Origin: Asterionella formosa
Taxonomy: Eukaryota
NCBI GenBank assembly: GCA_002256025.1
Contig: NKIB01014686.1
Coordinates: forward strand, 1-41,416
Direction of reading: 5' to 3'
DNA length: 41,416 nucleotides
The position numbers and the translations under genes are program-made. This document shows positions 324 through 35,521 of this stretch, in pieces; the first letter of the stretch is position 1; each line of letters starts with the position of its first letter. The notes below the pieces were generated by a model. That model saw only the letters and a program-made list of their open reading frames with translations. It was not told the origin of the DNA and made no database searches.

Positions 324-2912
324 CACCTCGTCGACTCTTTTCACCACAAGTGTTATGCAAAAACGTTTCAATAGGTTGTTCTCTTTTATTTTATGATGTG
401 TCTTGAGTACCGGTACTCTAAATTACAAGCAAGTTTCGCCGACCCAAACAAATACCGGTACTCTTTTAGGCGACCCGAAACAAATACTCCGGTGGAAGAT
501 TTATTGTCTTACAAGCTACGTAGTATACAGGTAGCTATGTCTGCAGGGACTCAATATTTATATAATACTGTATTGAAAAGTCACATTAGGAGAAGCCATC
601 GTTGTCAGAGAACTGCATTGCTTTGTTATTTATTAGGAAGGTCATTTGTAAAACAAATCCCAAGTGGTTTTTGTAAAATGTCTTTTGTCCCATTTCTACC
701 GGTAGACGTATTTTATGACCTATTTATTCCCCCCTGCAGGAAAGTCCGGTAAAACACGCTTTTACTTAGCAAAAGGAAAAGCTAAAGATCTCGATGACTG
801 GACCTTCCAGTGTAGATTAATACGGGTTCATACCGGTAAAAAATACAGCTAACCCAATATTTATTCCGAGCCCAAGTAAAAATATATGGTCGCATGTCAT
901 CATCTCTGCATCAGGGACTCAAAGTCATAAAACAGTCAGCGCAAAAGAAGAGCCACTTTTATCAGTTAGAGCACTAGGGTTAAGCCGGGGTAATTCATCA
1001 ATCCCCCTTGTTCTTTGTTAAAATATTTCTAGAAGTAACGTTCATTATCCTTAAAATGCACAAATTGTCGCCGAATGACACCAAGTTCATACCGGTGGTT
1101 CATTCATTACTCAATTCATAGCACGATTCAGCGAAATAAATACCGTATAATTCAGAGTCATGGCCTCTCCCTGAGGTTGCTGGTCCCCCGTGTACATTTT
1201 TTCGTGGTGGCACCAAACACCCAATGATTTTCTAGACATAGACAAAGTTACGTACTGTAATTATAATTTTTCTCTTAGGCACTGGAATATAAATATTTAG
1301 CTACGATTTTGCGATTACTTTGTACATATAAAACCCTAGAGTACGAAGCTAGTGCTTGTGAACTGCTGGAGAATCCTGCATCCTTGACCATGACGAAAAT
1401 ACGAATTATCTCCGCGAAAATTGAGAACAACGCTTTGCTGCTTGCTACATACTTAATGCACGACATGGCGAAAGAATTAAAGTAATAACACAAATAATGA
1501 CAACGAAAATTGAGATCGCCGATAGCAACATGAAGTCGTGTTTTTCTTGCAAGGTGGAGAACTCTCTCATTTTTCACCGGACAGAAATAGTTTTCATATT
1601 AAAACATATTAGAAAACTGCGCTCCATCCTGTAGAACCGATAAAATCTAGGTAGGTCCATTATAAGGGAAATCTCTTCATTTTCCTGCCCCCCCCTTAAG
1701 TATAATCAGCCAGTCAAATTCAGTCACGGCTTTGTACATTGAGGGGGCCAGGACACTGAATGTCATCTTGAAGCACACAATAAGCTTCTCAATGGCAGAG
1801 AAAAGAAGTTCATAAAGATACTAATGCTGGGCTGTTTCGGATTGTTTCTACTTGATCGTGTTATTGCCTAGTCTCCATCACTTATAGATACATTCTTCTA
1901 TGTGACCATGCTTTTGATTATTACTACCTGCCCATAGATACCAGTGATTGGTTGTATCAACATGACCTTGTTATTGGTATTCCGGCAATAGTTGTTCCCA
2001 TGTCAATCTAATCATTACACCATGATTGATGGTCTTGCAATCGTTTCCAGCACCATGTGAATGTTATCATCACATTATCTCTGTTTCCACCGATTTTCAT
2101 TTGTGTTGAGTTCATGAATCATCACAATAACGAACTTTTTGATCATCAAAGCTACAAGGAATGGTTACAAGAGGTCTTGCTTTGTAACTCAACAATCAAT
2201 AAATATAAGCACCAACCATTTTTTGAAGCCAATCCCGATGCCATGAACGCTTTCAAGCAATTCTGAATTGAAAATTTAAAATCGCTCTTAATGAAATTCG
2301 ATTCGCTCAAGGACGATTATCTAAGTATTTAGCTGGGTACTTGGAAAGACAACGCTCGCTCATCGCCTCTATGTGTGTACCGGTAGATGAAATTATCATT
2401 TTAACCATACAACTATGCATAAACTGCATGATCAACGTGAGTCAAGCCTACCACGCGTACCGGCAGGCGCATCGCTCAAAAACCGGTACCTGGTACCTGG
2501 TCCTACAGGTATCATATAATACTACCGGTAAATATGCTGCTCCCCATGATTATAACGGTAATTGAGTTTACCGGTAGTCTCGCGTACTAGTTATGAAAAT
2601 TTTAATATGGTGCATGGTATTTACATGCATTTTTGAATCTCAAACTTGACTCACAGAATGCATTTCTAATACTAACTAATATATTCTTATATTGACAGGA
2701 ATTTGTATATACAAATGTGTATAAAAAAGAAGAAACGACCATGAGATATATGTACCTACAGTGGCCGGTATTTATCGTCAAACCAGTCGCACATTTTCTT
2801 CGACCATATATCATTCCTAGTTGACGTAATCTCTGTACCGGTATTGCTTTGCAACTGAGCAATTAACTCCAATTCCCAGGTTGGTTGATTCTTTTTATTT
2901 TGAGTCTTTGCG

Positions 2913-3446
2913 ATGTCAGAGCCATTAACGTCCATTGAAAACACGGAAATGCGCACTAAGCATCACATCATGATTCTATCCGATCTCGTGGAGGATTCGA
3001 TACCAGACTCCATTGAAATCAATTTCGATTCCATCACAAAGGAATGCACTGTGGTAGCCGGTACTCGAACAGGTGGGTCTACATGCGATTTGGTTCACTC
3101 CGTTGTAATTATCGATTCTCGGCAGGATCAGAAATCTAACGCTCGACGAGCCGACATGCGTCCACTGTCACCCATGAAGGCAAACCGATCACGAGATCGT
3201 GAAATTCGAGAGTCGTCCATGACAAGAATAGGACGAGAACCATCGAGGAGCCTGACTCGGACCACTTCCATTCAGGAGAGTTCTGATTCAACATTTCGTC
3301 CGTCGAACATTGGTATGTCCCGAAGGAAACCAAATCTACAGCCATTGTCGGGTGAGGGCGATGAGTGTATACCGACAAATCGTTTCTTCTCCAAGGTAAG
3401 ATTCATTCCTAGGTCCAAGTTTAATCATGCTAGAGAAGCTCCATGA
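2913..3446 (+). CDS. hypothetical Ser/Arg-rich protein, possibly spliced near its 3' end
   Basis: 177-aa ATG ORF of low complexity. A possible donor AAG|GTAAG lies at 3396. No family recognised. Confidence 0.4.
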   Translation: MSEPLTSIENTEMRTKHHIMILSDLVEDSIPDSIEINFDSITKECTVVAGTRTGGSTCDLVHSVVIIDSRQDQKSNARRADMRPLSPMKANRSRDREIRESSMTRIGREPSRSLTRTTSIQESSDSTFRPSNIGMSRRKPNLQPLSGEGDECIPTNRFFSKVRFIPRSKFNHAREAP

Positions 3447-4334
3447 AGTGAATCATCACGTGGGGACTTCTGCAAGGCCAGAAATGCTTGAAATTCGTTG
3501 CTGCATACTACCCATCAGTTCCCATATTGATAAATAATCTTCCTCCGACGATCAAAATATTGCGTCAACTAGCTTTTTCAAGTAAGAGGTGGGACTAATG
3601 TTAGGCCCATTTTTGATGATGCTTGGAGGGAAATAATGGAATAAATTACGTGTATATCGCTTTGCTCTGTTGACCACCAAGTCTGGACGGGAATAGGCGA
3701 TTCCAATAATCGTTTTTGGCACTGGAAAATTCTTTCGCTGACGACGTTTTTAGAGAATGCAGTCGTGTTGCTAAGTTACTGGTAGACGTATTGGTGATGG
3801 TAGAATATCTGGTACTCCCTCCCAGATAAGAGAACAAACTTGAAAGGATGAGATGAACCTTTAAGTTGATGGTAATCAGGATGATGTTGGTATGGTGCTT
3901 ATACTAACTAATAGATAATACATATATATTTTATATTTATATTTACATATTGATGTCAATGTATTTTTGTATTTTCCAGATGCAAAGACTACCGTAATAG
4001 ATCGGTAAAGTATCACTGTTATGTTTACCAGACTACCCGTACGCCGTACAAGGTCGACCGGTAGGTATTGTTACTTTTTATTGCTTTATTCAGTATTGCT
4101 TTGCTTCAAAAGCAGAAAGTAATCACTTTTCAATAAATAATGTTCAAAATAATGAAAAAGAACGAAGTGATACTATAATAGTTGAGGACGACATTGCTCG
4201 AAATGGCGGCTATTGTTTTGCAAATGTACAATGTAATACTCGTGGATAACAAGTGCAAGTCATCAAAGGGTTAACAAATTCCATCATCATTTCTGGGCAC
4301 TAAAAAAGAACAGAACAATATTGGATACAGCGAC

Positions 4335-4779: not shown

Positions 4780-7121
4780 CTAGCTTTTTATGCTGTTTCG
4801 ATGTTGATGGGAAGGTGAAGCGGTGATTCCTTGCTCTCGTGCCAACTTATTGTATAAGCTGCCTTCCAATTTCAAAAGTTCTTCGGGGTCGCCGGACTCT
4901 ACAATTTCACCCTTCTCCATGACGATCACTCTATTGACATTGAGCGATCGGACCACACCAAGTCGATGTGTCACCATCACCATACTCTTTGTTTGCTTCA
5001 TGGCAACTTTCAATGCTTCAACTGCCTTCTTTTCACTCTCACTGTCCAATGCCGCTGTCGGCTCGTCCAGCAGCAGGACTTCGGGGTGGCGTATCAAGGC
5101 ACGGGCAATAGCAACTCGTTGCCGTTGACCACCCGACAAGGCACGCCCACCTTCGCCAACACGAGTGTCTAAATCCAGGCTAAGATCATTATTCTCATGT
5201 ATGGGGAAGCCTGCCATAAGCAGGGATTTTCCTGCTTTCTCCCGGTACTCTTCACTGTAACATGCAACTCCATTGTCATCAACAGAGTCCATTTCAATTC
5301 CATAAAGTACATTTCCCAATAAAGACATCGGGAACAAGCACGGCTCTTGAGCGACAACGGAAACTCGGGAGGCGAGTTCTTTGCGAGACATATCTCTGAG
5401 ATTTTCGCCGTTCAGACTAACAGAGCCGGAAACTGGGTCATAAAATCTCAAAATGGTTCGCAGCATTGATGATTTACCAGACCCACTCCGACCAACAATG
5501 GCAACTCGATCACCAGAAAATACATTTAAGCTAACTTCTTTCAAGGCAGGAACGTCCATGGCGCCGTAAGTCACAGTCATGTTCTGTATGGAAATAATTG
5601 GCACTGGAGCTTGTACATGGGATTTTTTCTCCGCTTCCTTATTCGGCCGTGGGTCACGAACCAAAGGTATACGTCGAATCAGGTCAAAGACACTCGTGGA
5701 AGCTCCAATAGCCCCTTGAATCTTGGCCCATTGATCCCCAACTTCATTCGATGATTCCAACACAAAATTGGTATAAAACATAAATGTCGTTAACTTTGCC
5801 GCGGGGAGACCACCTGCCCGGCCAATACTCCAACACGCAAATAATAGCGCTACTTGCAAAATAGTTTGAAGCGTGTCACTGACAAACTTGTGCGTTCCAT
5901 AGGCCCATGCCTGGACTTCTTCTAATTCCAGCGCTCGACCCTGCGCCTCCTCGTACTTTCCCGACTCTGCAGTAACTCCATCAAAGGCCCTGATCGTTTC
6001 TGACATGCTGAACGAAGTTTCCGCCACTGCAGTAGCATCGGCAAAGGTGTCTTGGACCTTTTCTGCCAATGAACGAGCAAAGTCTCCGTACAAGGCCGAC
6101 ACAACTGCGACCAAGAAAATTCCTGCAAAGGCATATAGTGACATTCTGGGAGAAATCTTTAAGAGATAGATTGATCCAAAAAGGAACTGAGCGAATTGGC
6201 GAAGCACGACGTTAACGTGGAAGGAAATGACCATGCCAATTTTGTTGACATCATTGTTTAAGCGGGATAGCAAGTATCCAACTTCGTTGCTATCAAAGAA
6301 GGCAGCTTCTTGGAGTAAAAGGTTGCGGTGAAGCTTGACACGGACATTGTAATTAGCACGAGAACCTGCGAGGGATGGTAATGTGTTAGGGCGACTATGT
6401 AGACCTGTAGTCGGCGCTGATTCAGGTAATCACACGTAAGCATCGACTCACCAGCAACCCAAAAGAGAGACCCTCGCATCCCTGTAAACAAGGCCCCCAA
6501 CGTCGAGGTAATGGCCAAACCAGCTAGAGCCCGCATACACTTGGACCGCGACGGATCCAAGGTCGCTACACATTGAATGCACTCCGAGTAAAATTGAGGA
6601 ATGACACTCGTCGTCAAGGCTCCCAATAACAAAAACGTAAAGGAAGGAACGATGATGGGAGCGTTGTACCCAGCCAATCTGACCAAGTTGCGGCGTTGCT
6701 CATTCAACACCTTCAAGTTGTCTCGAAAGCCTTGTTTAGGTGGAACCATACCATTCTTCCGCTTAAGTCTCAGCTGTCGGTTCTCCAACATTCTACGGAC
6801 TACAAATTTAGCAAAAAAGGACATTGAGCCAGTGATGGATTTAGTTTTCGGCACGATCCCGTGAACGTAAAAATCTTCCTCTTCGTCGGAAACGTGCTGA
6901 TGACCGTTGACGCAGCGGAGGTGGGCGATTTCAGCAGCTGAAAATTGCAGAGACGATGAGGACTTATGGAAGATTCTTCCATAGCTTGCCATTGAATGCT
7001 GCGGAGCAAACGCAGATGCTTGTGAAGAAGTTGCCCATAGCCACAGTGTCAAACCGAACCAGGTGCAGAGTTGATTTCTCCGTTCAGCCCGAAGCAGAAT
7101 TTGACAACTATTCTTTGCCAT
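4780..7121 (-). CDS. ABCB (TAP/MDR-like) half-size ABC transporter, predicted plastid-targeted; exons 7121-6452 and 6365-4780
   Basis: Walker A GRSGSGKS, Q-loop VAQEP, signature LSGGQRQR, Walker B LLLDEPTAALD and H-loop VTHRL. An 86-bp intron at 6366-6451 (GTGAGT...CGCAG) joins FWVAG|SRANYNVRVKLHRNLLLQEAAFFD in frame. The N-terminus contains ASAFAP. Confidence 0.93.
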
Positions 7122-7990
7122 TTCAACGAAATCCCGATCGATCTCAGCTTTCAAGTACACGTGATTATAATTGGAGTTGATAGAAAGCTACTGTTGATGG
7201 AGAAAGGAAGAAGGTTGATGTATCTTCTTTGCTTTCGATTTGTAGAAAAGGCTCTTTCTAGATTATTTGTTCGAGTACATTTTTATGGATTATGATTATT
7301 GTTCGTGTGATGATCGAGCGACGAATGAAAGGGCTGCGTCGGAAATGCTGACGAGTGGCATCAGTGCATCAAACTGTGTACCTGGTTGGTACAGTACATA
7401 CCAGTATGAATATGGCGTTATTCTTTCTCCCAGCAGCCCTGACAATTGCGCATCATACCGGTAGTTTTCTATTCATGTACCCCATGTACGTGCAGATTCT
7501 TGCTTCTCCCCCGCCCGGTGTTAACATTTTGCTGCTTCCTAGGAAGCAATGGCTGACGGATGGTTTAAGTGCGCTTCATGCGCGCCACTTAAGGTTCTTG
7601 TTGCTCGATGGTGTCGTCCTATGTAAGCGGGAGTCGCTCCTGCTGCTGCACACAATTCGCATACAGGTTTGTACGTATGCAAGTGCCGCATATGCATTTC
7701 AAATCCTGCAAAAAATGAAGAAATTTCAATTTCAAATTTGGCAATTATTTCGATAAATCGGTGTGTAAATAATATAAGCATCACCCAGTTCATGCTCACA
7801 ATATTCTTCCATCGTCATTTATTTCACTAAAAAAGAGAAGAATTGAGTCTCTACTTTTTCATTGATTGATATTCGATTGATAAGAGACAATAGCAAGTAT
7901 TCGATCCAAGAAGTCTGCGAAATCCAACATTTTGAAGCAATACCAACGCATCTTGCACCAATATCAATCTATATCAATTCGGAATTCCAA

Positions 7991-8967
7991 ATGAAGGGAC
8001 TGGCTGATCCTTCCAACAAGGAAAAGAAGGAATTGACATCATCTAAGCCTCCAAGATCGCCCCATGGTACGCAACACATCAGAAACAAATGAGAAGACAA
8101 AATTGACTCCGGGAACGCGTATGACGTTCTTATGACTCTCTGAAACGTATTTCAAACTTGTTTCCCGGCAAAACTCACACTCCACTATTTTCGTCTTCAT
8201 GTATCCTGGTAGGTAAATCCGGTCCCACAGCAAGCAAGTCTGGAACGAATCCAAGTAAATCCATAACCACGCCAGTCAAAAGTACAGACGCCCCAGGCAA
8301 GGCTGGTGATGCTTCAGTATCTACTCCAAGCAACACTCCAATGAAGAATGGATCCATGTACGAGCGTTCTTTGCAGCGCCTTGTGATCACCGAGTCCAAA
8401 TTGAAACAGCTCGAATGTACCATGATGAAATCTTGTACCTTTTCGCCCGACACCTCCAAGTCAAACATTCCAAAGAAGACGTCTGACACGAAGAAGAGTT
8501 CCGTCGTTCACAGTCGTGACAAAGCGACTACACCCGAAAATATGGGCTCCCGCAAGTCTCCAGGCAGTACTAGTAGCCGCAGCACTGTTTCAAATCGAGT
8601 GGATGAGTTATATAGAGACGGAGTAATAAAAAATAAGCAGCGCTTCATGACTGCCAAGGAAGAAGATGACGCCAGAGCGAAACGACTTCAGGAACGGGAA
8701 TTGGCAGAATGCACCTTTCAACCCAATTTGAATTGCTGGAAGGCGAAGCGCGGAAGTCCAGATGATAGCAAGAAATCTGATCGTTTCTCGGTTGAAGCAC
8801 CCAAGAGCGCTCGAAGTGTCAAGGTGCCCATCAAAGTGGTGGGAATGGTGCCTCCATCAGAAGTTACGGTGGTGAGTCCCCTCCGACATGCGGCTGTGGG
8901 ACCATTGAAGGAGCATTGCAATTTCAAGATGTTAGACTTTGATCAATGCGCGGAAGGAACCGAATGA
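7991..8967 (+). CDS. hypothetical Ser/Lys/Thr-rich protein with CTFxP repeats; exons 7991-8066 and 8213-8967
   Basis: Intron 8067-8212 (GTACGC...GTAG) joins MKGLADPS...SPHG to KSGPTASK in frame. Two motifs, SCTFSPD and ECTFQPN, each follow a helical segment. Confidence 0.7.
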
Positions 8968-9915
8968 ATTTTATTTCATAAATTGGCAAGACAATGAAGG
9001 GATCGACCAAAAAGGTCAAGAGTTGGGGAATAAATGAGTGCAATCAATCGAGCCGAAGAACAAGACGATGAGAGAGGCCGACTTGACGAGGTTAAGAATA
9101 ACCAAATGTGCATTCCAGGTATGTATTTGCGAAATATAGTAAAACTGCCGGTAGTTTATGTAATGTAATAAATATTTACCAGGTACCTGAATTCCGGTAA
9201 AGGTAAATGGTGGTAGTACACCAGTAGTATAATTAATTAACAAGACGAATGCAAAATATTAAAGGAAAGGACGGATCGCTCTACTAAGATTACATATGCA
9301 TGTATGTTGCAAAAAATGTAAGAATATTGCATACAGCCCTGCAGAGGGACTGTACCGGGTACCAGGTACACAGGATACTGCATGCTGCATACCGGTACTG
9401 CAGAACGAATCATCATTTTCTGGTTTGTACAAGCTACACATGCATGCATCATGTGTACATGCATACCGGTAGGCAGCATCCGAATGCCGGACGAATACAG
9501 GTCACCAGTAGCACCGGAATTGTTGGTTTTCATACGGTTGTACCGGCAGATACATACGGGTAGAGTGGAATAACGTGACCGTGGTACCTGGTACCTGGTA
9601 CCTGGAATCTGCCTGGTACAAATACACATATATCATACGGTATATCATTGCATATGATCTACAATATATTTATTTTTACAGCGGTATAGCTATTTTAGAA
9701 AGACTCTCATCAGCGATATCATATACCGGGGTACTGGTATGCAATTATATTTAGTCGTAGTACTGGTACAGGGTGCTATGTCTTACCAGATACTGGTACC
9801 TGGTAGCATGCCACGCATTATCGAAGGTGACGGTAATCCTTCTCGAAAAGGAACAGGCTTGTTCATTTGAACGTGTTGCAACAACAGTCGACAGTGATCA
9901 GATCTCGCAACCGGT

Positions 9916-11297
9916 ATGCCTTCTGAAATGAGCACCCGCTGCGACTCTTTCTCACAGGTACCAAGTGAGCAACTTATTCGTCGATCGTCCGGTCATAATG
10001 ATACATGTCCTCCTTTGAACTTGGAAATGATGTTGAGTTTGGAAGACAAACGCAAATCGATGAGGCGAGGTTCGTTTTTGACTACCGCAGATGTTCCTCG
10101 CCGGTCAATTATTGAGCATAACAAGATGATTGATTATCTCAGAAGTCAAGGTTTTACATTGGGTAAGGCAGTATTTGCTTCAGTTTCACATCATGCTGGT
10201 GCCTTGTCTTCGCCCTTGATCAACACACTCACGGTATCCGTTGCCCAGGACTCGCAAGAACACTCATACAAAACTCGGATTCCTTTCCGGTACGCATTTG
10301 GTTAGTCAATAACAGCGACACCATGAATCACGCAGATGGACACTTAGTTGTTCAATCCAAAGAACCTCCATTTTCTATTCGAAACGTCGATTGCACCCGA
10401 TGGGAAGAAGTTATCAGTACGCTCCGTTGGCACGCTGAATTCAGCGCTAGGATGCAAGCCCCCATGGCGATTAGATTGCTGAACGATCCGCTTACTGTGC
10501 CGCAACAGTTGGGAGTTGCTACAAGTACACAAGTGGTACTAGAAGAAGAAATCAACAGATTGTCTGACCTGACGAAACTTCGACCGGGTGGTCAAGGCAC
10601 ATTAACTTCGCATTTGCGAGAAGTGGTGAATGCAATAAAGGCCGTGCCTCGGCATATGCTCGATAATCGATCTATTGCTGTAGTCTTTGTCACAGATTCT
10701 CTACCGACCAGTGATAACGGACAATCTGGAAACCAGGCAATAGCCGAGTTTTTAGATATCCTGCAAGGGTTGGAAGGTTGGCCAGTGTGGTTTGTCATCC
10801 GATTATCGACAGACGAACAGGCGGTGGTCGACTTTTATGGTGATTTGGACAATGAAATGTTCAATATTGAGAAATCAGATATTACGCATACTGGACTGCA
10901 TCTTGATGTATTGGATGATTTTGTATCAGAAGCCAAGGAAGTTGCCAAGCACAACCCATGGCTTAATTACGCTTACCCCCTCCACCTTTGTCGAGAGTCA
11001 GCAGTGAATTTTCCAGTCTTTGATGCATTGAATGATCGGCCTCTGATGCATGATGAACTGGCCAAGTTTATCTGCCTCCTTTTTGATCGAAAGACCCAAG
11101 CATTCATGGAACAACCCTTGCCAAATCCAAAGACAGAATACAAGGCTTTTCGAGAGGAGGTGCAGCAACTCCTTCAGAAGAATGCAAGCCTTTGGAATCC
11201 AATCAAGAAACGAATTATGCCATGGATTGATGTGCCAGTGATGGATCAAATATACAGTAATGGTGCTGCATCCACATGTTCCTGTTCTCTCATGTGA
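9916..11297 (+). CDS. vWA-like domain protein with C-terminal CaaX; exons 9916-10162 and 10249-11297
   Basis: An 86-bp intron at 10163-10248 (GTAAGG...CCCAG) gives QGFTLG|LARTLIQNSDSFPVRIWLVNNSDTM. vWA-type beta/alpha pattern with VVFVTDSLP and LDVLDDF. Ends STCSCSLM*. Confidence 0.8.
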
Positions 11298-11913
11298 GCC
11301 AGCTCAAAACTATCAGATATTGTGCTTTTGTGGACCTTAGCACCCCTTTATGTTGTAAACCAGTAGAATGATAATAACCACTTTTACTGCACAGTATGAA
11401 CAAGAGTGGCTGCATCATCATATCATTGTAGTACTAAATCAGACATGTGGTACAGCATTGACATTATGTTTACCATTGCTTTCTTTTATTATTTCTGTCT
11501 AAAACATTCTATACCGGTACTTTTCCCGTATGCAGAGGAGTACAAAGGATATTTTTTCATGATAGGACTGCTCAACTCGCTCCATTCATGATTATACATG
11601 TGTTCTCAATTCCTGAGAACATTTATCCTCCTTTGGTAGGATCACGTACGTCACGTGCAAAAATTACCGGTGCAAGGTTACCGGTGTACCACCAGTACCT
11701 GGCACAAGGTACTGGTAGTGTCGTTTGTAGGAGGGGACACTTGCAAGGAGAAGGAACCAACTATAACAACAGTTTATTATCAAGAATCTGAGGTCTAACA
11801 TTATGGGCTTTCTGATATTTGCGTTGTTCATCATCCAACAATAACAGAATTATTAACAACTCATCACACTATCAGCTAGGTTACCTGGTACCTGGTACCG
11901 AAAACAAGTAACC

Positions 11914-12981: not shown

Positions 12982-13038
12982 CAAAATTACCTTGTCAAAT
13001 ATTCAATGAAGAAAATCTACAAATGTATTGTTACCATC

Positions 13039-14469: not shown

Positions 14470-14637
14470 TCTTCTGCTGAGTACCACTAGTTGATTAGAT
14501 TTGAAGTCTTTGTAATGTACTACGAGAAGCACAGAGCAACAAACTGAAATACTCCAAGTGCTCTACATTTAAAGTTTTTGTCTAGAAAAGTGCACAATAC
14601 AAAACGATATCCGAGCGGTACCTGGTACCTGGTCGTA

Positions 14638-14660
14638 CCAGCAAGTTGCGGTAATTGTGC
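14638..14660 (+). mobile_element. solitary end of the same MITE family as 20236-20337
   Basis: TA|CCAGCAAGTTGCGGTAATTGTGC matches the reverse complement of the 20337 end (CCCGCAAGTTGCTGTAATTGTGC) at 21 of 23 positions. No partner end was found. Confidence 0.55.
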
Positions 14661-15432
14661 GTTGTGGTACCACCCGGCTGGTACCAGTACGACTGATACC
14701 CTGGTACCTGGTACCAGGTACCTAGTAGCCTGGTTCAGGGACTACCAGAGGTCTACATGTGTTTGACCACAGTTAGCACCTCGTACCGGAAGCTACATCA
14801 GTGCTCATGTTCTGGTACCTGGTACAATGGTGTGGGTTACCAGGTACCGGTACGGACCTGTTACCAAACCCGACGGAGGACGGAGTGGTGCACAGTAGCT
14901 ACCGGCACAAATAATATATGAATATACCGATATTTATGTATGTGCAACAGCAGCCATAGGCACTACCGGTATCCAGTCATCAAAAACGAGCGAAATGCTG
15001 CAGCATGCTGAAGCAATGCTGGTACACGCATACCGGTACCTGGTTCTTCGCTCGTATATGGAGTACCTGGTACGGGTATGTAGTACCTTGTACCAGTACT
15101 CCTACCGGTCCCACCGTCATTCAAATGAATGCAACACAAACAACTAACCAGGATTGCAAACCGGGTGTTTGTAACCCTGTCCTTTCTCATTCAATCGAAC
15201 CTTGGCGGGTGTAGTAATTCGAACTAGAGCCATCAATACGAGCACAGCAACTGTGATCTGTTGACAGCAAAGCAAAGGTAAATCGTGCAGGCCGATAAAG
15301 GCAAAAACGAAACGGAGAGGAGGGAGCGGAATCAGAGATTGACTCACCTTTGTCGCCTGTGCCATACACACTGCAAGCAGAGTCAACGTGCAAGTTTCCG
15401 CAAGTACTGTTTCTCAAGCTGACCTGCCTCAG

Positions 15433-19835: not shown

Positions 19836-20235
19836 AAAGTACACAATTGGGAAACAAGAGGGAATGATTTCTCGTCTCAGCTCTTCGCCACAACATTTTC
19901 ACTTTCGTGTCAGCGCCGATCTTCTCGCGGAGTCCAATTATGTTATAGATTGTCATCACAGGTGATGTTGATTTCTTATTTGAGTAAGTCAAATAAGGGT
20001 GTGTACTAAATAGAGATTCTATATGAGTACAGTCATATTCAGCTATTAAAAAGTACAATGCAGCATTTGCTAGTTGGGAACCAAGTAAAATCGAGGAGCA
20101 CGTTTAGTAAGAAAAATGCTTACCCACCTTGCTTGCCGGTGTCGTCGCTCATGTACACCCAAAAACTTTGCTTCCAATCATATGCCGGTACCCCACCATA
20201 AGTACTCTGTGTACGTTGCCAACCTGCCTTCAGTA

Positions 20236-20337
20236 CCGGCAAGTTGCGAACATTTTGTTTAAATAAACAATTCAATTTGGGATAAAGACAGCTAAACTTT
20301 TACCATTAGTTACAGCACAATTACAGCAACTTGCGGG
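20236..20337. mobile_element. 102-bp MITE with TA target-site duplication (Tc1/mariner-type, Stowaway-like)
   Basis: TA|CCGGCAAGTTGC...GCAACTTGCGGG|TA: a 12-bp TIR with 1 mismatch and an AT-rich interior. A related end occurs at 14638. Confidence 0.65.
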
Positions 20338-20414
20338 TACCAGGCCACCATATACAGTACCTGGTACAGTGAGTGAGCGAAGAGAAAATTGACATTTCGA
20401 TACCGTAGTATAAC

Positions 20415-21295: not shown

Positions 21296-21543
21296 TGGAT
21301 ACATGTTCCCCTGTCATTGTAGTGTATGGCGGCTCGCAATCTGTTTCCATCCACTTGCTACCTTGACATAGCTAGCTAGCCGTTACCATTGCCTGCGATT
21401 CAGAGTTTCATCACAGCATTCAGTTTGTCGTCTCTAACGAATATTTCTCGTCAAATCGTCAGACATGAAGCATAAAATGGTAAAATAACGATCGCCGGTA
21501 AAATATGAGTATTCTGCACCCTATTTTGGAATATTTAATCATT

Positions 21544-23337: not shown

Positions 23338-23816
23338 GGTGGATGCTGTTTTGATATCAGCAGCAGACTATGTACGATCTGATGCAAAGGATGGAAGATC
23401 AGGTATGTTATGGGGGCGACGGAGGAATGATGTGTGTGAGTGTTTTTCAAATCGTTACACATCATAACGTGTGCATAAAACGAGAAGAATTCGTCGGTGC
23501 AGCCACACATTTCCCTGATAAATACATACCGGTACAGTTACCCGGTATTTCAAACATCATTAATACGGCATGTTATTGTTATTTCATATTCTTTTATGAA
23601 TTGTGTATTCAAAATACCAGGTACATACCGGTACCGGTATCATGCTGCATTTCAATGGAGGATTTCATTATAAATCAGCCTACCGGTACCAGTGCCGGGC
23701 GGTACATGGGAGGGGAGGAATGTTAATCACGCCAATGAAAGCTACGTCAAGTTGATACCATAAGCAGTGGGAGTACAAATTTTACAACAGCCGCGAACGA
23801 AACAACAAGACACACC

Positions 23817-24876
23817 ATGTCGGCGATAGCACGCCAACAAAAGACCAAAGGCGAGCAGTTTTGCAACGAAGCCGATGCGAAATTGTCCAAGGGTGGTTGG
23901 TTCACCAACAAGGAAAAGAAGTTCGAAGACGCTGCTGAACTATTCGACAAGGCCGGCAATGCCTACAAGGTCGGCGGCTTTTATTTTGAAGGAGGAGAAG
24001 CATATCAAAAGGCGGCGAGGATCTATCAGAAGGACCTTTCCAACTCATTCGAGGCTAGCAAGGCTCTTCAGAGTGCAGGTAAGTCTGCCTGGAAACTCAC
24101 AACTGTTGGATACTGCGGCCATACATTTTATTAGTTACACCATCCGCAACAGTCGTAATCTGACACGTTTCATTTCCATAAAATTCTCTCCTCTGTTCCC
24201 AGCATCCTGCTTCAAGAAAGCATCTCCCAAAGACGCCGTAGAATGCTACAACGAAGCCATTATGATCTTGACCGACGCCGGCCGCGTCATGACTGCTGCC
24301 AAACTATCCAAGGAATGCGCGGAACTATACGAATCAGAACAAATTGATTTGGAGGAAAAGTCGAGCATCGTTTTGGCCATTGAAACTTACGAACAAGCCG
24401 CGGAACTTTTCCTGGCGGAAGATGCGAAGGCAATGCAGTCGCAGTGCTTGGCCAAGGTGGCGGAATTGTGTTCGGCTGCCTTGAATCCACCGGATTTGAT
24501 GCGCGCACAGCAAGTCTATGATGATCTCGGTCGCAGGTGTTTGGACTCCAATTTACTCAAATTCAATGCCAAGGGATACTTTCTACAGGCGCTCATGTGT
24601 TCGTTGGCAAATAATGATTCGATTGCTGCCTCGCAAAGCATGCAGCGATACGAATCCTTGGATTATACCTTTGGGGACTCGCGGGAGGGAAAGTTTGCGA
24701 AAGCCTTGATCACCAGTGTAGAAGGATTTGACGAGGAAGGATTTGCGACTGCGTGCTTCGAGTATGATAGGGTGTCCAAGTTGGATCCATGGAAGACAAG
24801 TATTCTGGTTAAGGTGAAACGCATTTTGGCAGATGACGGCGGTGATGTGGAGGACGATGATTTAGATTTGACGTAG
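23817..24876 (+). CDS. NAPA: alpha-soluble NSF attachment protein (alpha-SNAP/Sec17); exons 23817-24078 and 24203-24876
   Basis: Motifs KFEDAAELFDKAGNAYK, LLKFNAKGYF, FGDSRE, EYDRVSKLDPWKT and an acidic DLT terminus. Intron 24079-24202 (GTAAGT...CCCAG). Confidence 0.95.
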
Positions 24877-25200
24877 TGTATTCGAACGCCCAGTACGAAA
24901 ATGGCGAGATGCCATCACTAAGAGATGATAGTGTAAGTGTATCAATGAAGTATGACAATTACCGGTTGCTGCACTACATAGTGATTTGGTGGCTCGTACA
25001 ATAATACGATCCATGAATACTACACATTCTTGTTCGGTAGAAGGAAAGAACATGAATATTTACAGTAGATATTAGGATGATGAGAGTAGCCCCAACATCT
25101 ATTTTAGGGGCGCAGCAAAGGGCCAGGTAATAAACAATGATGATGGTAATACCGAACCAACCACTTTGCGTATGATTTGCGTTGACAAAGAACCAAAATA

Positions 25201-26709
25201 CTAGTCTCGTTGGGCGCTTCCAATCAATGTTGGTTCCGGCCAGTAGTAGCCATCATTACATAGTTTCTTCATGTCTTGATTCGGTTCTCTGGGATGCAAA
25301 ATTAATTTCCAAACCAATGAATATCGAGGTCGCTTCCCCGCTGTAGCATGGGGGGCGGTGACCTTGTGAGTAATGTCTTGATCCATCAACACAATTCGTC
25401 CCGGTTTGGGGATAATGTCTACAGGGGTATCCGTGGCTACATCCAAGAATCGTGTCGGCGCACCCCACTCGTCCTTCCATTCGTCATTGAGATACACCAA
25501 ACAACTCATAAACCGTGGCTTCCCTGGTGCTCGATTGGGATATCGACCAAAGACGTCGGTCCAAAGAGATGGAGGAAGCTGCATTGGATCACCATCAATA
25601 TGATAGTTAAAGACATTTGAGTCTTCAGATGTGGGTGCGTTGGCGGTTAACGGAGACACAAATGACCCAAACACGGCTTCGGGGAGGCGAGTTACGATGA
25701 AATTGGATAATAACGATGTGACTATCATTTCAAAGTCTTGAATCGCATCATGATGTTGAAAACACAATTCGTCTATTGAATCTTCCGACAATCCAAAGGA
25801 ACGATCCAATTCTTCGTCCTCTTGAGTGGGTGTGTCCAGAAGACCTCCGCGAATCCATCGATTAGGATCAGGTCCATTGGTAACATCATCCCACTTTTCG
25901 ATTTTGTCGTCGGCCTCCTCCTCAGCTCCATTTACCACTTGTAATAATCTTGATCGTAACTCATTACTCACCATTCCATCAAAGACGAGAATCGAAGATG
26001 TGTCCCAAATCTCTTGCTGTTTTTCTTTATGATGTTTGCCACCCTTTTCGTCGCCATTTTCTTTTGGGATGGATATCATGGCCCCGTCCACTTCGATTTG
26101 AAATGTTGGAATTGGAATATCATGACGTCTTGCTGCTTGTGGCAACTGTACTTTTAATTCATACTCTTGAACTTGATGATCTATGATATGTGCCAGGGTC
26201 AATGTATTTCTGTCCTTTTGGTTGTTTTTGTTGGTATCAATGGATATCAAAATGGGTTGCTGAAGTGTAGTACTGTCTGCAAATTCGAATAGTATTTCGT
26301 CCAATTCTTGAGAAATGGAAATGGCTAAATCTGAAGCCTCCTCTTCAGTACTAGACTGTAAATTGAACAGTATGACCCTTCCCGTGGATCCAATCAACAA
26401 GGAGGACGAGTCAGGATGCAAAAGTTGTAAATTGTCAAGATCAAAGGATACCATTTGTTCTTGACATGAAAATGTCAATGCTTGTTGAATGGCACCAAGT
26501 TCTTCTGGAAGAATACCAGAACATGCGACAGCGACAAGTTTAGGAAGAGACCCAAACAACCGCAGATTTCTTTTGTTGTTGTTTGATGCTATGCTCTGAG
26601 TCAGAGTCCTTTGCATCCCATAGACCCAAGAATGGATGCAAGGGAACAGCAGTATTAAATACAGCGATGATAGTAGGTATTGCATGATGGACGTGTGGGA
26701 GCTGTACAT
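25201..26709 (-). CDS. 2OG-Fe(II) oxygenase (prolyl-4-hydroxylase-like) with N-terminal signal peptide
   Basis: HxD (YHIDGDP), LVYLNDEW...WGAPT, distal His (ITHKVTAP) and RYSLVWK. The start is either 26709 (MYSS) or 26685 (MQYL). Confidence 0.88.
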   Translation of the reverse strand: MYSSHTSIMQYLLSSLYLILLFPCIHSWVYGMQRTLTQSIASNNNKRNLRLFGSLPKLVAVACSGILPEELGAIQQALTFSCQEQMVSFDLDNLQLLHPDSSSLLIGSTGRVILFNLQSSTEEEASDLAISISQELDEILFEFADSTTLQQPILISIDTNKNNQKDRNTLTLAHIIDHQVQEYELKVQLPQAARRHDIPIPTFQIEVDGAMISIPKENGDEKGGKHHKEKQQEIWDTSSILVFDGMVSNELRSRLLQVVNGAEEEADDKIEKWDDVTNGPDPNRWIRGGLLDTPTQEDEELDRSFGLSEDSIDELCFQHHDAIQDFEMIVTSLLSNFIVTRLPEAVFGSFVSPLTANAPTSEDSNVFNYHIDGDPMQLPPSLWTDVFGRYPNRAPGKPRFMSCLVYLNDEWKDEWGAPTRFLDVATDTPVDIIPKPGRIVLMDQDITHKVTAPHATAGKRPRYSLVWKLILHPREPNQDMKKLCNDGYYWPEPTLIGSAQRD

Positions 26710-27764
26710 TGTCTCCGGTTGTATATAGAGAGTAAAATTTGGCAATCGTTGGAAGATGGGAGGATAGTAATGGAACAATGGACACTTTAGAACAAGGATC
26801 AATAAATGAGCATGTATATGTATGGCATTTTTTCCATACACAGGAGAATTATCAACTCAACCATCAGCCAACCGGCGAATGATAAAATGCTGTGATGAGA
26901 GAAAAATGAGTGGCAGACATTGTCAAGCAAGTCAGACTGCATCAGTTCCAGGGACTAACTACATATGTCATATATCCAGCCAAAATATGTTATATTACGT
27001 AACATGAATACGATTTGTGTGCACACATAATTCGTCCTATTCACACATATACAATTATTGATATAGTTTCAGGTACCAGGTACCTGGTACCTGTTTCTGT
27101 ATTAGCATTGCCAACATCCAACACTGCCTTAGTACCGGTAACAAACACCGTACGTACTAAACATACTAACTACAGTGCTGTTCAGAATAATTCTTTATTC
27201 GCCATACTAAGTGACATGCCAGGTAGACCTAACTTACCCAAAATGATAACAAAGCAAATTTGTGTTAGCCACACACACAGAGCAGCTGTTACACATACAT
27301 TGTGCATATAAATCTAACTATCTGAATATATACATATGCATATTTCTTGTTGCAAAATCAAATTTGTACTGGCAAGGCAGTCCAACTGTACTTGTAAAAG
27401 GGAACCTACTGGTGACTGGTACTGATTGAAAGTCCCGCATACTGAAATGTACGTAGCTTTGATTCCTCGATCCACTTTTGTTGGAACAACAGCAGTAAAA
27501 ATTCTCGTCTCTCACTTCACTCTCCCCCCTCTTTGGTGTATTGTTTTCTCGGTAAGCCTATCGGAAGTACTTATGTGTGCGGAGTTGCGTTACATTGCTA
27601 GTAGGTAGCATATTCAGCTGCGTTGATTTGATGAAACTCAGAAGGCAAATTGTATCTTTTTCCGATTGATTTCGGATGCCTAATTGCTCGTTCCTTTCAT
27701 TCAACGACCCATTCACTCACTCTCTATCTCATCAGCAAGCTACTTGCCACTTACCTAACTCATC

Positions 27765-28755: not shown

Positions 28756-28949
28756 TGATGAGCAATCCCACGCATAAAGACAGATGTATATAGAGTAAGA
28801 GATATATCATATATATCAGAACTCAATAATGAATGAACTCAACTAACACCTATTTTATACTTTGGTGTCAACTTAGAGTACAAGTTGCACACAGGGATTG
28901 ACTAAAAAGCTCAAATATTCAACAAATATACTACTTCTAGTTAGAAACT
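28756..28949 (+). repeat. 5' LTR of the Gypsy element
   Basis: Aligns to 32775-32962 at roughly 80-85% identity by manual estimate. Shared blocks include atatcagaactcaat, actaacacc, tatactttggtgtc and tactacttctagttaga. Confidence 0.88.
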
Positions 28950-29697
28950 TTACTTTGAATTCAAAAAGAGTCCAATTAGAATTAAAAATCATGTTGATGT
29001 ACTCTCCTCTCAAGTTCCAGTGGCACAATTGATGAAGGATAAGAAATACTAAACATCAAGATTCAGACCTCTTTGTGTATCCCTATCAGGTTGGTGTTTG
29101 GAGTCTTTCAATGAAGATATGATCAATGAACACTCAGTGGAAGCTTGTTGATTGATTTCAGTTTATCTTGTGATATGGCTAACACATTTTCCTTCAGTCC
29201 AGCAGATTACTTGCTTGTTCTCCTACTGCTACAAAAGATCATGATTCACAAATGTTGCTTTGTCTGACTGGATGAGCATTACAATACATCGAGATGCTAA
29301 GTCCCATGACAGTCTCAACAAAGTCATGGTGATGTGGCTGGAGGATAATCTTCTTCATGATATCTCGGATAGTCAGCATCAGTGGATGCCATGATAATAC
29401 TCAATAAAACATTTCAACATGTTGGTGATCGACTTCACTGCCTATCTCAATACCTTAAATAAACTCCTCAAACTAATGATGCCTCATTAAGAAGATCAGG
29501 AAGTCTTGGCCAAGGTTGATTTGAGATTAATTGACATTTACTTTATGCCCAGTGTGTGGCAGCAAGAGTTTGAATGGAAAAATGAAAAGAACACAAAACA
29601 AAAGATTCGTTTGGTTTTGACTTACTTCGAGAATCAACAATCATTCAAAGATAATCTCAAGCAAATCCTCAAGTATGAGTTCTACTATAGCACAACA

Positions 29698-29905
29698 TCG
29701 TCTTCGCATTGCTGAAGGCAATCGTGTTATGCCAAGAGAACGTGCGTGACTGGTGTCAATTTTCTAACACAAAATTCTATAAATAGTTGAAGTTGAAGAC
29801 ATTCCTGTGATGCATCAAGAAACCAAGCGTGACTAGTGTCAATTTTAACAAAAGATCGTCTTCGCATTGCTGAATGCAGTCGTGTGATACATCGAGAGAA
29901 CAACC
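29698..29905 (+). repeat. imperfect tandem repeats in the gag region of the Gypsy element
   Basis: tcgtcttcgcattgctgaa occurs twice, and gcgtgact(g/a)gtgtcaatttt occurs twice. Confidence 0.7.
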
Positions 29906-31134
29906 ATGTCAAGCATCAAATTGTACACGATAATTTTACACTAAGTGGTAATGGCAGGGCACATGACATGGAATAGTGAAACAACGGTCAAACAGCCATA
30001 AGGCCCATCAAGTTAATATTACTAACACTACTAACCCTGCTCCTGTTCATGTTCCTCTGGCATGGAAATTCTACACAGAGCGAATTATCATGATACTGAC
30101 ACAGCTAACCCCGTTCATGTTTTTCTTCTGTGCATGTTTTCTACAAATCTAAGGATCAACCCTATGATGATGTCTGGTTAGGGTACTGTGCCGAGGGCCA
30201 TACCTGCTGACTTTTATGAATCTGCCCAGGAAATTTTAGTGGTCATGAACCCTCATGTTGGGAAAGCTAGTCGCCTTTGTGCCTAAAACCCAGCAGAATG
30301 CTGAACAGATCACCTTAACCGAAATGTGCGACAATAGCAATGCTATGAATATTAAAATATGAATATATATATTTATTTATGATGGCACAATATTTCTTAT
30401 GTCAGTCATTACCTGAATAACATTTGTTATTTACAGGATAATTACAGGCTGGATATCGCCGCTATTTTAAAATACATAGGTGGATTCAACATATCATCAC
30501 ATACATCTCAATACATGACTCCAGTCTCATCTCTTTCTTTGCTGCCTATGAATGCAGCCATAAGCTTAATTGCATTTCATTCCCAGCATTTCATTAGCAA
30601 CCCCGGATTGGTGGCTATTGTGTATATAGAAGACATAAGATGAAAGTTATTTAATCGTGTTGGGTCCTGATCTTTTACCTATGGATGGATTGTACTTCAG
30701 GATATTTCATTGTTCGTCGAAGATTTATGATTAATATATACCATGCATAGCATGTATGATATATTCTTCCTTTGCCAGTACTCTTTCATAAAACATGATG
30801 CGCCCAAAATTTAATCCATCGGCTTGTATCCTGCAACACCAGAAGTACCTGGACTTAATATATTCTTCAAGTCTGCTTATTTCTCCAGCTGCTTAATTTA
30901 TGATGGATTTTGTACAAAATACCATGTCCTGTATGGTGGAAATATTAGTGTTTTCCGCATGTCAGCTAATGATACAGAACATTAACATAATGGGTTGTTA
31001 TATTTGATACACCTATCAAGGATTATCTTTACACATTGAACATTAAAGCTTCTAACTATAGTACAGATATTGACAGCTGCTGTTATGGCTGAAATAAATT
31101 TATTTAACCGAAAATCATAAAGCACAATTCCAAA

Positions 31135-32743
31135 TGAAATGGTCTGTTGAAGAAACTGACTCATTGGGATATCAATCAACTCCAACTCAACTCCAACTGA
31201 CCTCTTAAAAATATAAAAGGGGTTTATATGGAAATTGTTCATTTGTCTGGTTACCTATACATCAACAAGCTTTTGAATCAATGAAAGCATTGTTAGTTGC
31301 AGATACTCTCATGCATTATCCTGATCATAATTTTTCTTTCCATATTTTTACTGATGCTTCTGATTATTAATTATGGTCAGTCATTACGCAAAATGATCAA
31401 CCTGTCGCTTTTTATTCTCGCAAATTATCTGCTGCCCAGAAAAAGATTATATCATTATTGTAAAAGCATTGCTTTCTGTCCTAGAAACTTTCAAAGAATT
31501 TCGCTATATGCTATTGGATGCGGTTATACATCATGTTCACACTGATCATCATGATTTTATTTATAATACCCTACACACTCAACGTGTTCTTCGGTGGACT
31601 CTTTATATTGAAGAATTTCTTCTTATTTTTCACGATGTGAAGGGTACTGATAATGCTAGCTATTGCAGATTTCATCTCTCTCCTCCTGAAGCTTGAGTCT
31701 TCGGAGGGGGATGAAATTTTTCCGAAATTTTCAGGATCAATATCTCCTTCTACTTTCTCAATTGAATAAGATTATGACCCTCTGTTTACCTATTTCCTTA
31801 ATCATTCAGTTTTTCTCTCAATCAGCCAATTATTACCCTACATTAAATGCAAGAGTGGAACATATTGTAAGCATAGGTGAAGCATGTAAACGTACAAAAT
31901 TACCTGGTGCTGGTAGTGGTGAACTTCATCCCAGGAATGCATTGTTATTACCATGGTCAGAAGTTGCAGTAAATGTAATTGGTACATGGAAGATAACAGT
32001 GACTGCACAAGCGATTGAATTTCGTGCTCTAACTTGTGTTGACACAGTCACCAATTTGCCAGAAATTTCACGTATCAACAATAAAACATCAGAATATATT
32101 GCAATGAAATTTGAAAATGATTGGTTAGCCCAATATTCACGTCCAGAGCATTGTCTTCATGGCAATGGAGGTGAATTTACTGTTATTCCTTTTTGCGCAT
32201 GTTAGTGTTGAATGGAATTAAAGATGAGACTTCTACAATCAAGAATCCACAAGCTAATGCTATCTTTGAACGTTTACATCAATCTATCTGTAACAGTCTA
32301 CGGTTTATGTTAAGGGCTCATCCTCCTATTAATGAATTTCAAGTTCAAAATATTGTGGATACATGTTTTGCAGCAGTATCATATGCAGCTTGAGCTACCA
32401 TTCATACTAGTGCATTGTGTATTTCACCAGGATCATGGGTTTTTCAATGTGATATGTTATTAAATATTCCTTTAATTACAGATATACGATTAATGTATCA
32501 ATGTTGACAAGTGATAATTGAAATTTTTTATGTCATGCTAGATTCTGTCATCACTCTTGACATTACAAAGTGGATGATGAGATTTTAATCATATCGGATA
32601 ATCCTACAACTTAGATGACTGTGGATGAGATCCTTATTCTATTATTCAAGTACATGCCTATGGTGCAGTTTACTTATCAACAAACTATGCATATTACAGA
32701 ACGAATTAATATTCGTCGCATCAAACCTTTTCATACTACATAG
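31135..32743 (+). pseudogene. Gypsy pol pseudogene: RT C-terminal end, RNase H and integrase, with stops and frameshifts
   Basis: KWSVEETDSLGY (RT end); FHIFTDASDY*...PVAFYSRKLSAAQK...LETFKEFRYML...VHTDH (Ty3 RNase H); PWSEVAVNVIG...CVDTVTNLPE...HGNGGEF...NPQANAIFERLHQ (integrase with degenerate DDE). Confidence 0.9.
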
Positions 32744-32774
32744 AGGTAAAAGGTTTTCCCTTGGTGTGGGAGAG

Positions 32775-32962
32775 TGAGCGATCCCACATCAATACAGATC
32801 TATAGGGTTAGAGTTATATCTTAGATATCAGAACTCAATTATGAGAGAACTCGACTAACACCTGTTGTATACTTTGGTGTCGACTTATAGACCGAGTTGT
32901 ACGCAAAGATTAACTAATAAGCTGATATCTTCAACAAATACTACTACTTCTAGTTAGATACA
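32775..32962 (+). repeat. 3' LTR of the Gypsy element
   Basis: Direct repeat of 28759-28949. It follows the PPT and ends in CA. Confidence 0.88.
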
Positions 32963-33760: not shown

Positions 33761-34184
33761 ATGGTCCTTTCGAGTTGTCAACCAGCTGTGTGGCATGCTG
33801 AAATGGAGACTGAATTCCATGTCCTCTGTGTATACACTCATTTATTGGATGCAGTAAAAATGTAAGCACTGGAATGGCAGGTCTTCTTCTAGGAAAAGCC
33901 ATCAAGGAATCAATGGAGCTACAGCAGTAGGATAGTTGATGCTGGAAGATTTTTACGCACAATCATAATATTCCTACTGTTGCCATGAAGCGTCATATAT
34001 CAGCCAAGATAGTGTCACCCTTTTCGATTGTACCGGTAGCTTATTTCCTGTTGGAAATGGCGTCGTATATCTAGTTGTACATACCGGTACTATGATGCAT
34101 AATTGTTGCTAGTAGTGTACCAGGTATATTCCAGGTACCAGGTACCCAAATATATTACGACATAGACAGAAGGAGTGTATCTTA

Positions 34185-35099
34185 GGGTCGTTCTTATCAT
34201 TCCGAATTTGCTGTATCATTTCCGGGTTGTGGGCAAAAAATGACGGTTGGTATCAAAACACGGTATCAGCAACGGTAACTTGATGGTATCAATTTTGTAT
34301 CATTGATACAAAATTGATACCTTTTTTTGCCCCCTCCAAAAACCGTATCAGTGATACTGACGTTTTCACGCGGGTATCATTTCCGTTGTCACTGATAAAA
34401 TAACCGAAAATACGCCTGCAGGGTAGTACTTTTATTGACATCTACATAATATACACAAAAATTATTATGGTGTGCATCAAAGAAGCAGAATACAATCATT
34501 ATAGCGGCCGTGTGTGGTAATGTTCAGCCACAACACCGAAGAACGAAAACCACTGAGTCGAGAATTGAACAGATTGAGTCATGTGCATAGAGACATACCC
34601 GCTATCTAATTACAGGTACCAGTACCAGGTACCTGGTCCGGGAATTCATGACAAGGTACTAGGCAATAGAATACGAAAATGATCACGTGATTACGACATA
34701 TACTAGCTGTGCAAATACTTTGGCTTTGGCTGTCACTACCGGTACATTCTACTATCACTCGTCCAGCACGTACTAGGCAATAGAATACGAAAATGATCAC
34801 GTGACTACAACAAATACATGTCCAAATACAATTGACTATAGTAGTCCATATACATAATTCGCGTAGATTTCTTGCATGGTTTGAGGACTGGTTTGGCATC
34901 ATTTTGTACCGGTAGTCAGGAAGGAAAAGCACATGTTTGTAGCCAGCCCGTAACCGTTGAATTTTCGTGATACTTTTTGGTGATACAATTTCATTTTTAT
35001 TTTTGTGGAGAATGGATTTTTTCGGTTTAAATCGAGTAGCCGTTACATGATACTTTTTCAAAAAAAATGATACCAAATCGAAAATGATAAGAACGACCC
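34185..35099. mobile_element. 915-bp non-autonomous PIF/Harbinger (Tourist-like) DNA transposon
   Basis: Perfect 17-bp TIR GGGTCGTTCTTATCATT, extending imperfectly to about 35 bp. The 3-bp TSD TTA lies at 34182-34184 and 35100-35102. There are many subterminal GTATCA/TGATAC motifs and no transposase ORF. Confidence 0.88.
34656..34804 (+). repeat. 35-bp exact direct repeat inside the Harbinger element (34656-34690 and 34770-34804)
   Basis: gtactaggcaatagaatacgaaaatgatcacgtga occurs twice, 114 bp apart. Confidence 0.9.
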
Positions 35100-35521
35100 T
35101 TAGTTATGTCATATTTCGTAGCTAGTATCAGGTACCGTACCGGTAGTTGGATCAAACATAGTACGCACTCCCTTTGTCCGGAAGCAGTTGCATCGATTTT
35201 TCAAATTTCTCCGGCGCCATTTTGACTCCTACGATTTTCTCCGGCTCAATTGCCCTATTGTGCGGCTTGCTCCAAGCCACAGATCCATCTACTGGTATAA
35301 TATAAATAAGGGGTCATTAAACTACCCGGAGGTTACGTCGGCCTGACCATCATCAGCCAAGACCCATCGATGAGCACAATAGATATGTCGGAGCACCACG
35401 GTGTCCAACATCCGCCCATCGTCCTACGATATGTACATCACCATCACGCTCCTGTGAATTCTGTTCCACAATGAACACTCGCACGCACCGGTAGTTGCCG
35501 ACCCAAGAGGACCCGAGAAAT

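Follow-up and report, generated by a model that had tools for sequence, protein, structure and literature searches.

The window analyzed here is one whole contig of the diatom Asterionella formosa (NKIB01014686.1, 41,416 nucleotides), from an assembly of 68.4 Mb in 15,436 contigs. The spacers upstream of its genes contain short palindromes bounded by TA, chiefly TACCGGTA and TACC(A/T)GGTA (TACCWGGTA), which an earlier reading of the letters (the original prediction) had taken for footprints of excised transposons. The USP14-like protein of the window has its named relatives in pennate diatoms, at 60–67% identity, and the stretch itself is present in freshwater metagenome runs from several studies.

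In the window there are 28 exact copies of TACCGGTA and 22 of TACCWGGTA, against means of 0.17 (maximum 2) and 0.20 (maximum 1), respectively, in 60 first-order Markov resamplings. The prediction had counted about 25 copies of TACCGGTA with fewer than one expected, and its excess holds: 25 of the 26 listed positions are exact, 34906 should be 34907, and copies at 14845 and 23632 had been overlooked. The variants TACCAGGTA, TACCTGGTA, TACTGGTA and TACCAGTA occur 9, 13, 8 and 4 times, and the rarer TACAGGTA, TACCGTA and TACCCGGTA occur 3, 4 and 3 times.

Assembly-wide, there are 28,528 copies of TACCGGTA (reversed control, 1,718) and 26,886 of TACCWGGTA (reversed control, 902), the latter made up of 13,279 and 13,607 copies when TACCAGGTA is counted by strand (466 and 436 in the control). 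Both forms together make about 55,000 copies, which add about 0.36 Mb or 0.5% of the assembly. Counts by feature class, suggested with the prediction, were made in a 440-kb sample, consisting of the window and five large contigs picked for size among search matches. Outside long open reading frames (ORFs), TACCGGTA is the top enriched non-homopolymer 8-mer, 46-fold over a second-order model, and its density is 0.76/kb there against 0.06/kb in ORFs, a 13-fold difference.

With gene spans set by hand from ORFs, none of the 67 matches to the motif family in the window falls inside a gene, and every spacer that holds one of them includes at least one gene start. The six tail-to-tail spacers (together 1,396 bp; P about 0.005) are free of matches, and so is a 4.2-kb gypsy-like remnant despite its 345 TA sites. 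The features concerned are as follows.

408..35145, unstranded: 28 TACCGGTA palindromes, taken as footprints (TA + CC + GG + TA) that CCG-ended pogo elements left behind (from exact count and insertion analysis)
336..2903, unstranded: head-to-head spacer, 9 motif matches
8968..9915, unstranded: spacer upstream of a vWA-like ORF, 11 matches, about 9% scar bases, with a TACCTGGTA chain at 9585-9600
11298..11913, unstranded: spacer upstream of ORF 11857-12981, 4 matches
14470..15429, unstranded: head-to-head spacer between P450-like and Myb-like ORFs, 12 matches, about 8% scar bases
23344..23816, unstranded: head-to-head spacer between USP14-like and alpha-SNAP-like ORFs, 6 matches, about 8% scar bases
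26710..27764, unstranded: head-to-head spacer upstream of a V-ATPase c ORF, 3 matches
28759..32961, + strand: decayed gypsy-like, long terminal repeat (LTR)-retrotransposon-like remnant, terminal repeats 82% alike, CpG observed/expected 0.46, 345 TA and no motif; internal negative control

The exact motifs add 481 bases, 1.2% of the window, and reach 8–9% only in the three densest spacers, so that to call the spacers saturated, as the prediction did, was an overstatement. Its claim that units chain by a common TA applies well to TACCWGGTA, of which 159 of 198 copies adjoin another unit, and less well to TACCGGTA (60 of 216). Short local repeats that carry motifs were also seen at 408-500 (three similar 45-bp units), 697-708 and 3777-3791, without a match elsewhere in the sample.

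Insertion of TACCGGTA at TA and resident pogo families

Whether the motifs arise by insertion or by substitution was examined in repeat copies, above all those of one element of the window.

34185..35099, unstranded: PIF/Harbinger miniature inverted-repeat transposable element (MITE), 915 bp, TTA duplication, with 4 motif matches (34617, 34623, 34737, 34907); test bed for insertion versus substitution

Among the best 30 of 40 scored loci of this MITE, drawn from 604 candidates, all six of the six-base insertions relative to the consensus turn TA into TACCGGTA, at six separate sites, although one of them is a tandem copy of the adjoining unit and could be slippage. Four of the seven seven-base insertions turn TA into TACCNGGTA. 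In a wider sample of all repeat copies in about 0.9 Mb, where de-duplication was imperfect and at least one event was counted twice, TA-CCGG-TA accounts for 15 of 42 polarised six-base insertions and for 2 of 41 six-base deletions. The clean insertion at TA that the prediction called for is thus what these copies display.

When TACCGGTA is the minority state (n = 31), the opposite state is a clean empty TA in 16 cases, complex in 8, and differs by substitutions in 7, these seven belonging to two sites of shared ancestry where the motif has decayed in other copies. At the position matching window 34907, TACCGGTA is kept in 9 MITE copies and substituted in 14. The TA at window 1407-1408 is empty, and a paralogous copy carries TACCGGTA there. 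CpG decay of TACCGGTA, as seen in MITE copies, accounts for some TACCAGTA and TACTGGTA.

Comparison among individuals was less informative. Strains differ by about 1–2% in window 7001-27000, where contigs of four runs gave 97 indels; none of the 12 listed is clean and motif-sized, which says nothing about motif polymorphism. The assembly holds no second haplotype of window 12000-27000, and no same-species locus was found among 22 loci in JGI metagenomes.

The prediction also required TA-targeting transposons with CC...GG ends, and such elements are resident. A genome search with the DDE_1 profile gave 100 matches from 116 candidates, and 58 of the 60 matches examined fall into three families, A, B and C. 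Families A and B have CCGT...ACGG ends, namely TA|CCGTAAAACC and TA|CCGTATACTT, and family C ends in TA|CAGTG. The family A end has 154 terminal matches (at most one mismatch) against 2 for a control. Family A comprises 2.46-kb full copies with long open frames as well as 0.8- and 1.4-kb derivatives, and it is very young, as ten copies share a mean identity of 99.7% (45 pairs). The transposase domain is Pfam DDE_1 (E 1e-21), with 35 residues between the last two aspartates (DD35D) in A and B, whose terminal inverted repeats (TIRs) do not exceed 40 bp. The TA duplication of A and B was verified by empty paralogous sites (L142, L121, L095 and L102/L103). One derivative lies in the window.

1141..1760, + strand: decayed non-autonomous family B derivative, with a start of TA|CCGTA and a truncated right TIR; identity to a TA-flanked 658-bp copy in L150 about 80%

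One repeat site was observed in three states: as an empty site, with TACCGGTA, and with a family C pogo together with TAGTA. CCG ends should also give minor products, and these are present, with 68 TACCGTA/TACGGTA and 17 TACCSGGTA beside the 216 TACCGGTA.

Families A and B resemble Passer in DDE_1, DD35D, TA duplication, short TIRs and a weak BrkDBD match. Because DD35D spacing is shared by Passer and Fot/Fot-like elements (PMC7386202), we call them Passer-like by features. Passer is reported there from nine stramenopile species, in a main text that does not contain the word 'diatom'. Unlike Passer, family A has a second, convergent ORF of 145 aa, which is rich in Cys/His (L111:848-1285 and L064:173-610, both +); a similar ORF stands beside a DD39D mariner in L225. 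In human cells, Passer is described as leaving footprints of 0–4 bp and preferring transcription start sites and promoter chromatin (PMC9976928), a preference that fits the spacer distribution of the scars.

We conceived the following course for TACCGGTA. First, a Passer-like pogo element or a gene-less derivative inserts at TA and duplicates it, as the empty sites demonstrate. Second, excision by a staggered cut would leave each flank with two or three bases of the element end. Third, end joining would give TA-CC-GG-TA, either with 2 + 2 bases kept or with two CCG overhangs paired through CG, by analogy with Sleeping Beauty and Tc1. Every event adds six bases, an insertion seen directly in the repeat copies, and one new TA. 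Scars would collect upstream of genes if the elements favour open promoter chromatin and coding insertions are purged.

Several observations weigh against this course. No excision event was observed, and among 64 A/B flanks, several of which had an empty TA, none had a paralogous copy with TACCGGTA in place of the pogo element. The base before TA is T in 23% of pogo A/B ends (11 of 48) but in only 10% of TACCGGTA flanks; thus, other CC-ended elements may contribute. The surplus of about 55,000 exact scars over about 154 family A ends requires long or very fast turnover. The CAG-ended family C leaves almost no scar excess (TACATGTA 1.0-fold, TACAGTA 1.4-fold). With these points counted, we put the probability that TACCGGTA is an excision footprint at about 0.9, and pogo A and B are likely its main donors. 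Two other origins were discarded, the TTA Harbinger MITE as donor by its ends and duplication, and a hairpin (P-nucleotide) origin of TACCGGTA by empty sites without a TACC arm.

TACCWGGTA and explanations other than excision

The prediction invoked a single element for all the motifs. That stands for TACCGGTA, with its insertion at TA and its resident CC...GG donors, but not for TACCWGGTA, which differs in flank bias and length series. G stands next to TA in 82% of TACCWGGTA flanks versus 30% for TACCGGTA; for isolated TACCWGGTA it does so in 44 of 78, and across the CCAG-type core series in 52–82%. This series contains CCAG/CTGG (113), CCWGG (198) and CCAGGG/CCCTGG (20), while the other nine CC-xy-GG core pairs number 0–2, with CCTGGG/CCCAGG among them at 0. 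Joining of two CCAG ends that overlap by 4, 3 or 2 bases would give such a series. Because a scar at GTAC restores GTAC to its left and right, units would build up into chains.

We therefore lean towards a second TA-targeting donor with CCAG...CTGG ends and a GTAC bias, which would probably make all three members of the series. Searches for it count against excision in this class, since no CCAG-ended TA element was met in about 0.9 of 68 Mb (less than 1.5% of the genome, a small part for a low-copy family) or through four transposase profiles. The DDE_3 search gave no match from 16 candidates; this search is insensitive because pogo A itself scores on the DDE_3 profile. The Transposase_1 search gave one weak match, which was not a mariner end. 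The IS630 profile gave 18 weak matches, and the four examined were three DD39D mariners with CTCC ends (two from the same stretch) and one retroelement integrase. The window holds an end of that mariner family.

35167..35309, + strand: Stowaway-like end fragment of the DD39D mariner family, CTCC ends, not the CCAG donor

This family is of the plant type (L223, L225), and several of the mariners and their Stowaway-like derivatives are inserted directly after CTGG-TA. Plant Stowaway MITEs are described as leaving small insertions near genes, unlike the precisely excising Tourist (PMC4561436). The scars here likewise probably come from TA-targeting elements and are small and near genes; on the other hand, the CTCC ends of the resident Stowaway-like family mismatch the motifs, and the likely donor of TACCGGTA is of the pogo type. 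Two simpler sources of the W base and its flanks were dropped. An untemplated A on a CC overhang disagrees with the 20 CCAGGG/CCCTGG against 0–2 for other CC-xy-GG cores, and a 4-bp GTAC duplication with CAG ends disagrees with insertions at CTAC sites, which gain a G absent from the target.

A rival account accepts TACCGGTA as a footprint but lets TACCWGGTA chains lengthen from a seed unit by slippage or templated break repair, for instance once a CWG-duplicating MITE has excised, and needs no CCAG-ended donor. The chaining of most copies agrees with this, as does the excess of same-orientation over mixed neighbours (33 versus 17). Three of the four polarised CCWGG insertions lie within a single chain that was already there; slippage or templated repair might equally have produced them, which is a further point against excision. 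Under this account the missing CCAG-ended element would be no surprise. We consider such growth a fair rival, though an unlikely one, because clean insertions from TA to TACCWGGTA occur outside any chain (L016, L079), 39 copies are isolated, both orientations are mixed in chains, and the exclusive presence of CCAGGG/CCCTGG fits inverted CCAG ends rather than homopolymer slippage.

Alternatively, the motifs could be cis-regulatory or methylation signals under selection in promoters, as the prediction itself had allowed. The confinement of all window matches to spacers with a gene start, their absence from tail-to-tail spacers, and the 13-fold non-coding density of TACCGGTA are what such signals would produce. 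However, whole units are inserted inside transposon copies, where a promoter role is not expected, and decay freely there, as at the 34907 site. Positional conservation is not evident either, as 22 Myb-related loci of other diatoms (48–79% protein identity in the best segment), many of them short or transcript-like, contain 3 TACCGGTA and 2 TACCWGGTA. Moreover, the length of the motif core ranges from 3 to 6. A regulatory origin is thus quite improbable, although some scars may have been co-opted later.

A CWG-duplicating MITE, other small insertions and scale

TACCWGGTA is itself a target. A short MITE is represented twice in the window.

20240..20333, + strand: 94-bp MITE ending CAAG...CTTG and flanked by a 3-bp duplication, here CGG (20237-20239, 20334-20336) and CWG in most copies; NuwaI-like
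14642..14660, + strand: single end of the CWG-duplicating MITE, after TAC-CAG

Candidate copies in the genome number at least 444. Of 40 copies, 32 have the same middle base in the flanking triplets left and right (A/A 17, T/T 13, G/G 2; P about 1e-4 for a 50% expectation), which holds for both subfamilies, and in 21 of 40 the exact 3-mer flanks both sides. An equal middle base indicates a 3-bp duplication, as an inverted repeat would give A/T instead, and an empty paralog (of L042) already holds TACCAGGTA. Thus, the MITE duplicates CWG and targets (G)GTAC-CWG-GTAC(C), that is, TACCWGGTA scars.

The opposite relation would make the 94-bp MITE the source of TACCWGGTA, as an element that duplicates TA and has CCAG/CCTG ends. 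It was suggested by the TACCWG and CWGGTA that flank most copies, and because no other unique sequence recurs after TACCAG in 0.7 Mb. The equal middle base and the filled empty paralog make it very improbable, and Harbinger-type elements are described as excising mostly precisely (PMC4561436).

NuwaI elements, of the PHIS superfamily, are defined by CWG duplication, with TIRs usually beginning GGG, and are reported from animals only, according to their description (PMC4482050). The 94-bp MITE shares the 3-bp CWG duplication, evident from the empty paralogous site, and short TIRs, but begins with CAAG and belongs to a diatom, and the matches examined yielded no autonomous partner. A DDE_Tnp_4 search for one gave 150 matches, and none of the eight examined was seen to have the ends of the 94-bp MITE. 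The TTA MITE at 34185-35099 has the ends of a very young Harbinger family (L215-L219), whose transposase has about 40 matches of equal score, located at contig ends.

An assembly or sequencing artefact has practically negligible probability: the assembly is fragmented, but contigs of four independent freshwater runs match the window, many others there match the chains at 9582-9605 and 14700-14722, and the motifs are limited by gene context and polymorphic among repeat copies.

The spectrum of 492 polarised insertions of 3–40 bases, from a sample that is biased to repeats and leaves out indels of 1–2 bases, contains a further class. Three-base insertions have the form NN-(G or C)-NN (NN-S-NN), with many dinucleotides NN, in 202 of 248 cases, and four-base insertions the form NN-GC-NN in 77 of 122 (3 of 24 among deletions). 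Together these make 279 of the 492, far more than TA-CC..GG-TA. Although 102 of the 202 NN-S-NN cases are also tandem triplets and could be slippage, G or C occupies the middle in 100 of 106 non-tandem three-base cases (P about 1e-30). Footprint-like insertions thus amount to 201 to 303 of 492, including 24 TA-CC..GG-TA events. An example of the class stands at window 31654-31661.

An element that duplicates 2 bp probably left these insertions as scars. A candidate donor family starts with CGTCTGC, its C start being supported by four empty sites, and the duplication is found in two of four end pairs, one of them probably spurious. Decayed elements of 3.3 and 4.3 kb (L185:4543-7833, L206:3856-8114) have CGTCTGC-type ends, 2-bp duplications (GA, TA) and cysteine-rich remnants. 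The family has no Pfam match, and a PF02992 (Transposase_21) search, run without a working control, was empty. To yield a GC scar, C...G ends need a hairpin-type inversion, which is associated with CACTA (CMC) elements; this link could not be confirmed. Other repeat families have TTAA|AGG ends, often abutting (L008, L009, L068, L095, L119, L123), and are possibly Kolobok-like.

A broader reading, to which we give somewhat less than even odds, is that excision exceeds polymerase slippage as the main source of small non-coding insertions. At least three element classes would write TA-CCGG-TA, TA-CCWGG-TA and NN-(G/C/GC)-NN, or 40–60% of insertions of three bases or more in repeat copies, and in promoters the process would feed itself, with CCWGG scars rebuilding GTAC and creating a landing site for the NuwaI-like MITE.

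Transposon excision footprints are textbook knowledge, usually seen as rare by-products; this is a known mechanism at an unusual scale. For IS630-Tc1-mariner elements (Sleeping Beauty with TACAGTA/TACTGTA, Tc1, Tc3), footprints are described that keep TA on both sides of a few terminal bases, with a length series from imprecise cuts (bioRxiv 10.1101/659086). The TA-bounded core and length series recur here, but those footprints come from assays or single alleles, whereas in this diatom CCGG and CCWGG cores are fixed in one assembly in their tens of thousands, partly in chains, and fill nearly a tenth of some promoter spacers. In the open literature (PMC, bioRxiv), which leaves most subscription papers outside this scope, we found no report of genome-wide footprint accumulation in a diatom. 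New here are a tested connection between TACCGGTA and two DD35D pogo families whose TA duplication was verified, the distinction of two kinds of scar, and the recognition of NN-S-NN/NN-GC-NN insertions.

The scars would allow past excisions to be counted, well beyond what the surviving copies of the elements tell, and would map, in fixed form, where the elements of a diatom prefer to insert. In such genomes the top results of promoter motif discovery can be scars. As family A is intact and very young, the footprint claim is directly testable.

Other features of the window were noted in passing. Several copies of the LTR element at 28759-32961 (L145, L192, L204) begin directly after TACCAGG, which hints at scars as a preferred target. 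A solo-LTR-like stretch (TG...CA) at 19829-20036, 91% identical to L173, lies beside a G/C homopolymer gap. A Ty1/copia-like open frame for reverse transcriptase and RNase H (40571-41416, −), called by eye without a Pfam match, runs off the contig end, and a tRNA-Val (TAC) gene occupies 18329-18401 (−).

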